64,000 nucleotides of DNA, from NCBI RefSeq assembly GCF_024223415.1, contig NZ_CP100500.1; one strand, 5' to 3'. The translations under genes and the position numbers were made by a program. This document shows, one piece after another, positions 47,441 to 50,749 of this stretch (position 1 is its first letter; every line of letters begins with the position of its first letter). This DNA comes from Escherichia coli. Its GTDB lineage: Bacteria; Pseudomonadota; Gammaproteobacteria; Enterobacterales; Enterobacteriaceae. Below the pieces are notes generated by a model. The model saw only the letters and a list, made by a program, of their open reading frames with translations. It made no database searches and was not told where the DNA came from.

Positions 47441-49102
47441 ATGATTAACCGTATCCGCGTAGTCACGCTGTTGGTAATGGTGCTGGGGGTATTCGCACTG
47501 TTACAGCTTATTTCCGGCAGTCTGTTTTTTTCTTCCCTTCACCATAGCCAGAAGAGCTTTGTGGTTTCCAATCAATTACGGGAACAGCAGGGCGAGCTGA
47601 CGTCAACCTGGGATTTAATGCTGCAAACGCGCATTAACCTGAGTCGTTCAGCGGTACGGATGATGATGGATTCCTCCAATCAACAAAGTAACGCCAAAGT
47701 TGAATTGCTCGATAGCGCCAGGAAAACATTGGCGCAGGCAGCGACGCATTATAAAAAATTCAAAAGCATGGCACCGTTACCTGAAATGGTCGCTACCAGT
47801 CGTAATATTGATGAAAAATATAAAAACTATTACACAGCGTTAACTGAACTGATTGATTATCTAGATTATGGCAATACTGGAGCTTATTTCGCTCAGCCAA
47901 CCCAGGGAATGCAAAATGCAATGGGCGAAGCGTTTGCTCAGTACGCCCTCAGCAGTGAAAAACTGTATCGCGATATCGTCACTGACAACGCAGATGATTA
48001 CCGATTTGCCCAGTGGCAACTGGCGGTTATCGCGCTGGTGGTGGTATTGATTCTGCTGGTGGCGTGGTACGGCATTCGCCGTATGTTGCTTACACCGCTG
48101 GCAAAAATTATTGCGCATATTCGCGAAATCGCCGGTGGTAACCTGGCGAATACCCTGACCATTGACGGGCGCAGTGAAATGGGCGACCTGGCGCAGAGCG
48201 TTTCACATATGCAACGCTCTTTGACTGACACCGTCACTCATGTGCGCGAAGGTTCAGATGCCATCTATGCCGGTACCCGTGAAATTGCGGCGGGCAACAC
48301 CGATCTTTCCTCCCGTACTGAACAGCAGGCATCCGCGCTGGAAGAAACTGCCGCCAGCATGGAGCAGCTCACCGCGACAGTGAAGCAAAACGCCGATAAC
48401 GCCCGCCAGGCCTCGCAACTGGCGCAAAGTGCCTCCGACACCGCCCAGCACGGCGGCAAAGTGGTGGATGGCGTAGTGAAAACGATGCATGAGATCGCCG
48501 ATAGTTCGAAGAAAATTGCCGACATTATCAGCGTTATCGACGGTATTGCCTTCCAGACTAATATCCTCGCGCTGAATGCCGCGGTTGAAGCCGCGCGTGC
48601 GGGTGAACAGGGCCGTGGTTTTGCCGTGGTGGCGGGTGAAGTGCGTAATCTTGCCAGTCGCAGCGCCCAGGCGGCAAAAGAGATCAAAGCCCTCATTGAA
48701 GACTCCGTCGCACGCGTTGATACCGGTTCGGTGCTGGTCGAAAGCGCCGGGGAAACAATGAACAATATCGTCAATGCTGTCACTCGCGTGACTGACATTA
48801 TGGGCGAGATTGCATCGGCATCGGATGAACAGAGCCGTGGCATCGATCAAGTCGCATTGGCGGTTTCGGAAATGGATCGCGTCACGCAACAGAACGCATC
48901 GCTGGTGCAGGAATCAGCTGCCGCCGCAGCTGCGCTGGAAGAACAGGCGAGTCGTTTAACGCAAGCGGTTTCCGCGTTTCGTCTGGCAGCCAGCCCACTC
49001 ACCAATAAACCGCAAACACCATCCCGTCCTGCCAGTGAGCAACCACCGGCACAGCCACGACTGCGAATTGCTGAACAAGATCCAAACTGGGAAACATTTT
49101 GA
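47441..49102 (+). CDS. tar: Methyl-accepting chemotaxis protein II (aspartate/maltose receptor Tar, 553 aa)
   Basis: ORF track 47420..49102; [22 protein letters not shown]-terminal NWETF. Confidence 0.95.
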
Positions 49103-49147
49103 CGAGTATTTACTAACGCGGTCATTGCCGCCTGATGGGGAGCGTTG

Positions 49148-50749
49148 ATGTTTAATCGTATTCGAATTTCGACCACGCTGTTTTTAATTTTGATTCTCTG
49201 CGGGATCTTGCAGATTGGCAGTAACGGCATGTCTTTTTGGGCATTTCGCGACGATTTGCAACGACTGAATCAGGTCGAGCAGAGCAATCAGCAACGTGCG
49301 GCATTAGCGCAAACTCGGGCGGTAATGTTACAGGCCAGTACCGCGCTGAACAAAGCGGGCACTCTGACGGCACTTAGCTATCCGGCGGATGACATTAAAA
49401 CGTTGATGACGACGGCGCGCGCCAGTCTGACGCAATCCACCACGCTGTTTAAAAGTTTTATGGCGATGACTGCGGGCAACGAGCACGTCAGGGCATTGCA
49501 AAAAGAGACGGAGAAAAGTTTTGCCCGCTGGCACAACGATCTCGAACATCAGGCGACCTGGCTTGAAAGTAATCAACTTTCGGATTTCCTCACTGCGCCG
49601 GTGCAGGGATCACAGAATGCGTTTGACGTTAACTTTGAGGCCTGGCAGCTGGAGATCAACCATGTGCTGGAAGCCGCCAGTGCGCAAAGCCAGCGTAACT
49701 ATCAGATTTCGGCACTGGTGTTTATCAGCATGATTATTGTTGCGGCGATCTACATCAGCAGTGCGCTGTGGTGGACGCGCAAGATGATTGTTCAACCACT
49801 GGCCATTATCGGTAGCCATTTTGACAGCATTGCTGCGGGTAATCTGGCGCGTCCGATTGCGGTGTATGGTCGCAATGAGATCACCGCCATTTTTGCCAGC
49901 CTGAAGACCATGCAGCAGGCTTTGCGTGGGACGGTGAGTGATGTGCGTAAGGGAAGCCAGGAGATGCACATTGGTATCGCGGAGATTGTCGCAGGCAATA
50001 ACGATCTCTCAAGTCGTACCGAACAGCAGGCGGCATCGCTGGCACAAACGGCCGCCAGTATGGAGCAATTAACCGCCACGGTAGGGCAAAACGCCGATAA
50101 CGCACGACAGGCGTCGGAACTGGCAAAAAATGCCGCGACAACGGCGCAGGCGGGCGGTGTTCAGGTCAGTACCATGACTCACACCATGCAGGAGATCGCC
50201 ACCAGCTCGCAAAAAATTGGCGACATTATCAGCGTTATCGACGGAATTGCTTTCCAGACCAATATTCTGGCCCTGAATGCGGCAGTGGAAGCGGCTCGCG
50301 CCGGAGAGCAGGGGCGTGGTTTTGCGGTAGTGGCAGGTGAAGTGCGCAATCTTGCCAGCCGTAGCGCGCAGGCAGCAAAAGAGATCAAAGGGCTGATCGA
50401 AGAGTCAGTCAATCGTGTCCAGCAGGGTTCGAAACTGGTGAATAACGCCGCCGCGACCATGATCGATATTGTCAGTTCGGTGACCCGCGTGAACGACATT
50501 ATGGGAGAAATTGCCTCTGCGTCGGAAGAACAACAGCGGGGGATTGAGCAGGTTGCACAGGCTGTCAGCCAGATGGATCAGGTGACTCAGCAGAACGCCT
50601 CGCTGGTAGAAGAAGCGGCGGTGGCAACGGAACAACTGGCGAATCAGGCCGACCATCTTTCGTCGCGTGTGGCGGTATTTACCCTTGAAGAACATGAAGT
50701 AGCACGACATGAGTCGGTGCAGTTACAAATTGCGCCAGTGGTATCCTGA
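49148..50749 (+). CDS. tap: Methyl-accepting chemotaxis protein IV (dipeptide receptor Tap, 533 aa)
   Basis: ORF track 49145..50749; MFNRIRISTTLFLILILCG. Confidence 0.95.
   Translation: MFNRIRISTTLFLILILCGILQIGSNGMSFWAFRDDLQRLNQVEQSNQQRAALAQTRAVMLQASTALNKAGTLTALSYPADDIKTLMTTARASLTQSTTLFKSFMAMTAGNEHVRALQKETEKSFARWHNDLEHQATWLESNQLSDFLTAPVQGSQNAFDVNFEAWQLEINHVLEAASAQSQRNYQISALVFISMIIVAAIYISSALWWTRKMIVQPLAIIGSHFDSIAAGNLARPIAVYGRNEITAIFASLKTMQQALRGTVSDVRKGSQEMHIGIAEIVAGNNDLSSRTEQQAASLAQTAASMEQLTATVGQNADNARQASELAKNAATTAQAGGVQVSTMTHTMQEIATSSQKIGDIISVIDGIAFQTNILALNAAVEAARAGEQGRGFAVVAGEVRNLASRSAQAAKEIKGLIEESVNRVQQGSKLVNNAAATMIDIVSSVTRVNDIMGEIASASEEQQRGIEQVAQAVSQMDQVTQQNASLVEEAAVATEQLANQADHLSSRVAVFTLEEHEVARHESVQLQIAPVVS

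Follow-up and report, generated by a model that had tools for sequence, protein, structure and literature searches.

The adjacent chemoreceptor genes tar and tap of Escherichia coli very probably evolve independently, their identity of ~73% being maintained by protein conservation only, and short blocks of perfect identity between them act as rare crossover points that give rise to 1701-bp fusions. To characterise the locus, we analysed a 64-kb stretch of E. coli DNA (the window) together with public genome collections, in which natural recombinants and the positions of their junctions were observed. The fusions are rare, occurring in 3 of 5426 genomes. The tar–tap repeat and fusion by recombination are already known, a laboratory fusion having been described in 1987, and tandem paralogy is textbook knowledge, so the result is mostly of little consequence; the modest addition is that the event is quantified in nature, in the closed genomes and on ~100 contigs of wider collections.

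Anatomy of the tar–tap repeat

Over 3.5 kb, the tar/tap interval of the window matches, at 99.9% identity, genomes in which tar, tap and cheR are annotated in that order, which bears out the gene calls made in an earlier note on this DNA. Upstream of tar lie cheA–cheW, and cheR follows tap. Both products contain TarH, HAMP and MCPsignal domains with Pfam scores far above the cut-offs; the Tar translation ends in ...DPNWETF, with the high-abundance receptor tail NWETF, and that of Tap, which lacks this tail, in ...IAPVVS. Domain order, synteny and the distribution of NWETF all identify the two as the receptors of the E. coli tar-tap-cheRBYZ locus, and the full tar–tap interval is present in 4321 genomes. 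The tandem paralogy of tar and tap and their conserved signalling domain have been textbook matter since the 1980s; the genes are old tandem paralogs of the cheW–tar–tap–cheR operon (Table 1).

The earlier note had described the signalling-domain regions of the two genes as long near-identical segments, lying in direct orientation about 1.7 kb apart. Orientation and distance are correct, as the regions repeat directly and in register at a spacing of 1701 bp (48272–48781 and 49973–50482), with repeat families 74–77% identical. "Near-identical", however, is an overstatement. Over the whole of the repeat copies the identity is 72.5%, and over ~640 nt of the signalling-domain region ~73%; the highest values, 82–84%, come from 90-nt segments with a protein identity of 93–100%. 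The 23-mer quoted as an example, GACATTATCAGCGTTATCGACGG, is genuine: 48521 and 50222 are its only two occurrences in the window (0 expected from shuffles), and it sits within a perfect run of 24 bp. This is the only perfect run of at least 20 bp between the two genes, followed by runs of 18 bp, 16 bp and several of 11 bp. The note had set a perfect run of 20 bp or more as the level needed for recombination, which the 24-bp run narrowly reaches in the window; among 9 diverse strains compared, however, the block is shortened in some to 21 or 15 bp, the latter falling short. Set against a minimal length for recombination of ~20–27 bp, the 24-bp block alone lies within the range, the others being no longer than 18 bp.

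Table 1. Coordinates of the genes, repeat copies and identity blocks at the tar–tap locus (positions in the window)
Feature	Position	Strand	Description
tar	47441..49102	+	methyl-accepting chemotaxis protein II, 553 aa; TarH 1-169, HAMP 212-262, MCPsignal 325-482, C-terminal NWETF
tap	49148..50749	+	methyl-accepting chemotaxis protein IV, 533 aa; domain order as in Tar, without NWETF tail
Codons for the Tar C-terminal NWETF pentapeptide	49085..49099	+	missing from every Tar–Tap hybrid
Direct repeat copy 1, tar signalling-domain coding region	48272..48930	+	72.5% identical in register to copy 2
Direct repeat copy 2, tap signalling-domain coding region	49973..50631	+	offset +1701
Longest perfect identity block, tar copy	48520..48543	+	24 bp, CGACATTATCAGCGTTATCGACGG, codons for DIISVIDG; crossover site of ET474 and PEC389 hybrids
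24-bp identity block, tap copy	50221..50244	+	
Second identity block, tar copy	48385..48402	+	18 bp, GCAAAACGCCGATAACGC, codons for QNADNA; crossover site of ETEC4088 hybrid; tap copy 50086-50103
11-bp identity block, tar copy	48320..48330	+	GAACAGCAGGC; crossover site of third in-register hybrid (Logan ERR3550700); tap copy 50021-50031
16-bp identity block, tar copy	48674..48689	+	28 bp from 48662 in some strains; tap copy 50375-50390
Interval missing from type-A hybrids	48544..50244	+	1701 bp: tar 3' part including NWETF, 45-bp spacer, tap 5' part including ligand-binding domain
Left copy of 12-bp imperfect repeat	49267..49278	+	GAATCAGG(T/C)CGA; bounds common B2-type 1374-bp tap deletion; right copy 50641-50652

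Natural tar–tap fusions

Using a spacing test able to detect any such deletion, we found an exact 1701-bp in-frame tar–tap fusion in the chromosomes of ET474, PEC389 and ETEC4088. A synthetic hybrid query matched each of them in one piece annotated as tar followed by cheR (99.7% for ET474 and PEC389, 96.4% for ETEC4088), and each carries an intact 1608-nt ORF, then cheR. The hybrid protein retains TarH, HAMP and MCPsignal domains. The sources of the fusion are wild isolates (frog, pig, other assemblies). Informative-site painting showed tar giving way to tap between positions 48519 and 48544 in ET474 and PEC389 (24-bp block) and between positions 48384 and 48403 in ETEC4088 (18-bp block), with no mosaic sites in hybrids of either junction. 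A third in-register junction lies within the 11-bp block, on a single short-read contig; no recombinant with a junction in the 16-bp block was found. Three independent in-register crossovers have left fusion products with junctions inside shared identity. Breakpoints placed uniformly would fall in blocks this long or longer with P ~0.002, or ~0.0003 when a wider alignable region is taken. Perfect-identity blocks of 11–24 bp in a 73% repeat are enough to direct crossovers. The parental blocks of the hybrid lineages may differ from those of the window, since the identity blocks are polymorphic among strains.

The two hybrid proteins recur on 71 and 28 further contigs from independent assemblies, and the type-A loci are 2–7 SNPs apart in 9.6 kb, indicating inherited lineages. 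The expectation in the earlier note that the direct repeats recombine into tar–tap hybrids and delete the interval is thereby confirmed, and the search of population data for structural variants that it had proposed returned exact 1701-bp fusions with their junctions in the three blocks. It is hardly credible that the repeat is recombinationally inert and has only produced apparent hybrids through errors of assembly or annotation. Assemblies can collapse repeats, and the 11-bp junction, like a tap–tsr hybrid described below, rests on one Logan contig. Yet the fusion is present in three closed chromosomes from different laboratories, and contigs encoding identical hybrid proteins extend up to megabases; blocks of at most 24 bp are below the k-mer lengths that assemblers normally use, and the sequence around them, at 73% identity, cannot collapse. 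Mosaic sites are, moreover, absent from the deletions, each of which is exact and keeps the reading frame.

Spontaneous Tar–Tap hybrid transducers were reportedly obtained in E. coli K-12 by Slocum, Halden and Parkinson in 1987 (J Bacteriol 169:2938), as deletions formed where the homologous regions coding for the C-termini had recombined. The natural fusions resemble them in genes, orientation and the joining of a Tar N-terminus to a Tap C-terminus; unlike those laboratory isolates, they come from wild strains, with junctions mapped to 24-, 18- and 11-bp blocks and a known frequency. Chimeras engineered in both orders (Tar–Tap and Tap–Tar) by Weerasuriya, Schneider and Manson in 1998 (J Bacteriol 180:914) are said to have revealed interchangeable modules, with the tail and the signalling part setting receptor performance. 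The natural fusions carry the same domain swap, whereas the chimeras were constructs joined at selected restriction sites and did not arise from the native repeats. Literature searches for natural tar–tap fusions gave nothing relevant. As the fused genes are annotated simply "tar", surveys of chemoreceptor repertoires would miscount them.

Probable independent divergence of tar and tap

Judged from the sequences, the similarity between tar and tap is attributable to protein conservation and not to homogenisation. Concerted evolution would instead have repeated gene conversion keep the adjacent copies alike, with the 24-bp run as the remnant of a recent tract. The two genes do lie side by side in one orientation, and their third-position identity was 0.49 against 0.39 expected from codon usage alone; in a codon-redraw simulation, a 24-bp run had P = 0.017. 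Two strains show the base of tar at a pair of neighbouring positions in tap, 50368 and 50374; apart from one 2-site pair, clustered paralog-matching sites were absent from the 9 strains. However, tar and the unlinked tsr are more alike than tar and tap, at 78.1% versus 73.2% overall, with a 28-bp versus a 24-bp run and a third-position identity at identical residues of 0.53 versus 0.49–0.51. The tar–tap identity is also flat across the 9 strains (72.1–73.0%), and in ~5400 genomes every signalling region of tar or tap reaches 95% identity or more with the corresponding copy in the window, with no conversion tracts longer than ~120 bp.

By their diagnostic residues, orthologues from Escherichia, Citrobacter, Enterobacter and Salmonella sort with the gene and not with the species. 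Tar orthologues of five other genera or species keep 40–46 of 49 Tar-diagnostic residues, and Tap orthologues keep 23–28 Tap-specific residues with only 3–6 Tar-like ones. E. fergusonii Tar (519 aa), which covered 100% of the hybrid query, was considered as an ancient hybrid and rejected, as 46 of its 49 diagnostic residues are Tar-type. The locus therefore lacks the marks of concerted evolution: synonymous similarity does not exceed that of tar–tsr, grouping is by gene, and conversion tracts longer than ~120 bp do not segregate. Concerted evolution is already largely refuted for tracts above that length, and as an account of the similarity it is very improbable; gene conversion, which the earlier note had offered as an alternative to recombination, finds no support. 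In tufA/tufB of Salmonella and in rRNA operons, paralogous copies in one genome are likewise able to exchange sequence, and they remain ~99% identical through conversion; tar and tap, in contrast, share 73% identity, are heavily diverged at synonymous sites and group by gene across genera. Being adjacent without detectable gene conversion, they offer a clean negative control for concerted evolution.

Mechanism and consequences of the fusions

In the course of events that we propose, the perfect blocks of 24, 18, 16 and 11 bp, in register 1701 bp apart, act as rare crossover points, and exactly 1701 bp are deleted when the copies of a block pair in an unequal exchange or when replication slips from one to the other. 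The product is one in-frame gene joining the ligand-binding, transmembrane and HAMP parts of Tar to the distal signalling part and tail of Tap. Its protein lacks NWETF and tap is lost, with cheR still correctly placed downstream. As for the enzymology, the exchange may be RecA-dependent at the 24-bp block, or else RecA-independent slippage; on the sequence evidence, short-homology deletion without RecA and classical RecA-dependent homologous recombination are equally possible. The minimal segment processed in RecBCD/RecA recombination is reportedly ~23–27 bp, a value ascribed to Shen and Huang (1986). Since the context is only 73% identical and the 18- and 11-bp junction blocks are below this minimum, it may be incorrect to speak of homologous recombination in its narrow meaning.

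A RecA-independent short-homology deletion, through replication slippage, template switching or single-strand annealing, would place the fusions in the same class as the tap deletion of B2 strains. We give this origin somewhat less than an even chance. It fits the shortness of the junction blocks, the existence of out-of-register in-frame tar–tap fusions with 2–5 bp of microhomology, and the lack of a reciprocal duplication. The reciprocal product (tar, tap/tar hybrid, tap) was rejected as a segregating variant, the best match to a synthetic junction query in 5404 genomes being 88.9%. On the other hand, the junctions seen most often sit in the two longest blocks, with long tracts of 80% similarity on either side; this suits homology-searching recombination too, and the sequence fits either mechanism alike. 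A distance of 1.7 kb is, in addition, large for efficient slippage.

The widespread B2 deletion also speaks for a RecA-independent route, being flanked by 12-bp imperfect repeats. Loss of tap in B2 and uropathogenic E. coli has been described (Lane et al. 2006; Borziak et al. 2013, as these are cited in passages of PMC3559539 and PMC12623472). The B2-type loss combines a frameshift with the deletion of 1374 bp between 12-bp repeats that both lie within tap, and is ~360 times commoner than the fusion (~1089 genomes versus 3). It was considered as a product of tar–tap recombination and rejected, as its endpoints are the 12-bp repeats within tap and tar is untouched. Both are natural structural variants that remove Tap function at the locus; unlike the fusion, the B2-type loss leaves tar intact and forms no hybrid.

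With respect to phenotype, we infer that aspartate sensing would be kept but weakened, that adaptation would rely on other receptors, and that Tap-mediated dipeptide taxis would be lost. It is conceivable, though unlikely, that the fusions are stably inherited and perhaps advantageous receptor variants in animal-associated E. coli, combining an aspartate/maltose sensor with a Tap-type, NWETF-less adaptation module at the cost of dipeptide taxis, and that the short identity blocks in the conserved codons of the hairpin tip might tie all MCP paralogs together in a recombination network.

A protein search also returned candidate hybrids with a Tap N-terminus and a Tar C-terminus. P0212, a mosaic carried by a metagenome contig of 1.9 kb, is probably chimeric; P0209 was rejected, as it is a tap–tsr hybrid with the downstream neighbours of tsr. 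If the network exists, the tap–tsr hybrid would exemplify how it can bring sensor and signalling modules into new combinations and even rearrange the chromosome. On the single Logan contig from ERR13324381 that carries it, the crossover lies within the longest tap–tsr block, 20 bp.

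Anatomy of the tar–tap direct repeat

ORF calling on the window placed tar and tap next to each other on one strand, and both proteins contain TarH, HAMP and MCPsignal domains. Across their 3.5-kb interval the window agrees at 99.9% with E. coli chromosomes annotated tar, tap, cheR; 4321 of 5426 complete genomes contain this interval in full. The earlier note had described near-identical segments in the two signalling domains, citing a 23-mer. This 23-mer does occur in exactly two copies (48521 and 50222; chance expectation none), as part of an in-register direct repeat whose copies start 1701 bp apart. 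"Near-identical", however, is too strong, as the two repeat families are 74–77% identical, and 72.5% over 48272-48930. In a codon-by-codon profile, nucleotide identity reaches its maximum of 82–84% exactly where the proteins are 93–100% identical, and only 47–57% of third codon positions match there. The note's own threshold, a perfect run of 20 bp or more, is reached by a single block (24 bp). The shared segments are real, yet the observation is only partly confirmed because their identity was overstated.

Features of the tar–tap locus (window positions unless a locus is named)
Feature	Position	Strand	Detail
tar	47441-49102	+ (same strand as tap)	translation Tar, 553 aa, C-terminal NWETF
tap	49148-50749	+ (same strand as tar)	translation Tap, 533 aa
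Longest perfect tar/tap run	48520-48543 / 50221-50244		24 bp
Second perfect run	48385 (tar copy)		18 bp
Third perfect run	48674 (tar copy)		16 bp
Further perfect runs			five of 11 bp
Ends of B2-type deletion	49267-49278 and 50641-50652		12-bp imperfect direct repeats GAATCAGG(T/C)CGA
Other sites cited for B2-type lesion	T-run near 49233; locus L001 3349-3500

Natural tar–tap fusions and their products

We assembled the sequence expected from the deletion, with tar running to 48543 and tap resuming at 50245, and searched 5426 complete genomes with it. Identity was 99.7% in ET474, from a frog in China, and in PEC389, from a pig in Korea, and 96.4% in ETEC4088, from a Belgian pig; each matched in one piece annotated tar, cheR. 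A second query, which used only the distance from the tar 5' end to the tap tail and is sensitive to fusion at any junction, returned exactly these three and no others from the same genomes. Each carries an intact 1608-nt ORF (3309 minus 1701), followed by cheR at the normal distance. The hybrids were painted at all sites that distinguish tar from tap in the window. A single clean switch falls within the 24-bp block in ET474 and PEC389 (type A), bounded by 48519 and 48544, and within the 18-bp block in ETEC4088 (type B), bounded by 48384 and 48403. The two hybrid proteins occur on 71 and 28 contigs of a large protein collection, in many independent assemblies. A protein search with the hybrid gave a third in-register junction, in protein P0026, whose crossover is at 48320-48330, an 11-bp block. 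Were breakpoints uniform along the repeat, the chance of three junctions landing in blocks at least 24, 18 and 11 bp long would be P about 0.002; with the wider alignable region as the reference it drops to about 0.0003. Crossover is directed by short perfect identity. No genome in the complete-genome search carries the reciprocal duplication junction. The tar/tap repeats do recombine, rarely.

Type-A loci are 2–7 SNPs apart in 9.6 kb, except for one locus whose haplotype differs, and does so only upstream of the fusion; this pattern fits a single origin, with inheritance and recombination in the flanks thereafter. In one member of this lineage (L018 5627-6486), a 1-bp frameshift splits cheR, which suggests that the chemotaxis operon is decaying further in that isolate.

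In type A, Tap sequence follows Tar residues 1 to about 360–368, and in type B it follows residues 1 to about 316–321. Both retain the Tar periplasmic sensor, membrane segments and HAMP domain, with the domain architecture intact. Because they take Tap's hairpin-distal half and tail after the Tar front part, they are without NWETF and the whole tap sensor. NWETF tethers CheR and CheB. Given this role, and what Slocum in 1987 and Weerasuriya in 1998 reportedly established about the Tar and Tap receptors, we infer that the hybrid would sense aspartate, show impaired adaptation assisted by Tsr, and support no dipeptide taxis.

Enzymology and loss of tap by deletion

As the enzymology of the fusions, RecA recombination and RecA-independent short-homology deletion are roughly equally likely, the sequence fitting either. 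The minimum length reported for RecBCD/RecA recombination is about that of the 24-bp block, and the other two junction blocks (18 and 11 bp) fall short of it. RecA-independent short-homology deletion clearly acts at this locus, since the B2-type deletion falls between 12-bp repeats. About 1089 of the 5426 complete genomes (e.g. ATCC 25922) are without most of tap through this lesion, a 1374-bp deletion between the GAATCAGG(T/C)CGA repeats plus a 1-bp frameshift; the remnant carries a pseudogene annotation. Passages in PMC3559539 and PMC12623472 cite documentation of tap loss in B2/UPEC strains (Lane 2006; Borziak 2013). Several in-frame tar–tap fusions, singletons and out of register, show no more than 2–5 bp of microhomology. 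Such proteins (P0017, P0018, P0027 and P0028) are 656–771 aa long, on one or a few contigs each; in P0017 (L026 1501-3816), a 993-bp deletion joins tar at ~48865 to tap at ~49858 across 2–5 bp of microhomology, duplicating part of the cytoplasmic domain.

Slocum, Halden and Parkinson reportedly obtained laboratory Tar–Tap fusions in 1987 via recombination between homologous regions. With these fusions reported and tap loss documented, the earlier note was a correct reading of a known situation, and the repeat feature is real, ordinary in kind and already known. No description of natural tar–tap fusions was found in the literature searched; added here are their population frequency, the junction mapping and a negative result for gene conversion.

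Origin of the likeness between tar and tap

We asked whether adjacency has homogenised tar and tap. The unlinked paralog tsr, 2.6 Mb away in K-12, is closer to tar than tap is, with 78.1% versus 73.2% identity (best 639 nt), a longest run of 28 versus 24 bp, and third-position identity at identical residues of 0.53 versus 0.51; pairs with trg give 0.44–0.48. When codons were redrawn from MCP codon usage with both proteins kept fixed, tar–tap identity over 48200-49000 was 67.8% observed versus 62.6% expected, and third-position identity 0.49 versus 0.39. Therefore some ancestral or site-specific codon signal persists, no greater than in unlinked pairs. Throughout nine diverse strains, tar–tap identity is 72.1–73.0% and paralog-matching minor alleles are scattered single sites. 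In ~5400 genomes, the tar and tap signalling regions all reach 95% identity or more with their counterparts in the window, which excludes conversion tracts longer than roughly 120 bp. Among 49 residues separating E. coli Tar from Tap in the signalling region, Tar orthologues of E. marmotae, E. fergusonii, Citrobacter and Salmonella keep 40–46 Tar-type residues, and Tap orthologues (Citrobacter, Enterobacter, Huaxiibacter) have 23–28 Tap-type and just 3–6 Tar-type residues. Given the tsr comparison, the strain and genome identities and the cross-genus residues, the likeness is the mark of purifying selection acting on an old duplication rather than of concerted evolution. Of the earlier interpretation, hybrid and deletion formation is supported by the natural fusions, whereas gene conversion is unsupported.

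In two strains (L007, L008), tap sites 50368 and 50374 both carry the tar base, so that the shared run starting at 48662 grows to 28 bp. Either chance or conversion over a very short tract could account for this. P0216, a Tap recorded under Enterobacter hormaechei, agrees with E. coli Tap at 49/49 diagnostic signalling-domain residues with an overall identity of only 83%, and other Enterobacter Taps share 26–28/49; mosaicism, horizontal transfer or a wrong label on the record could explain P0216.

Other variants include a tap–tsr hybrid gene (P0209, L027 476-2128) on a contig of the Logan short-read collection (ERR13324381), with the tar 3' end upstream and the tsr neighbours lgoT/lgoR downstream. 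Its crossover lies within the longest identity block that tap and tsr share, the 20-bp TTCCAGACCAATATTCTGGC. Either the contig is chimeric or the hybrid reflects a rearrangement on the megabase scale. P0179 and relatives represent a Tap variant of 506 aa on 352 contigs; it appears to have lost 27 internal residues in frame and frequently carries the annotation "Tar ligand binding domain-containing protein". The same annotation is given to the remainder of tar in PI24 (match H140), which has an internal tar deletion, and DS26-1 (match H74) has an IS1 insertion in tar.
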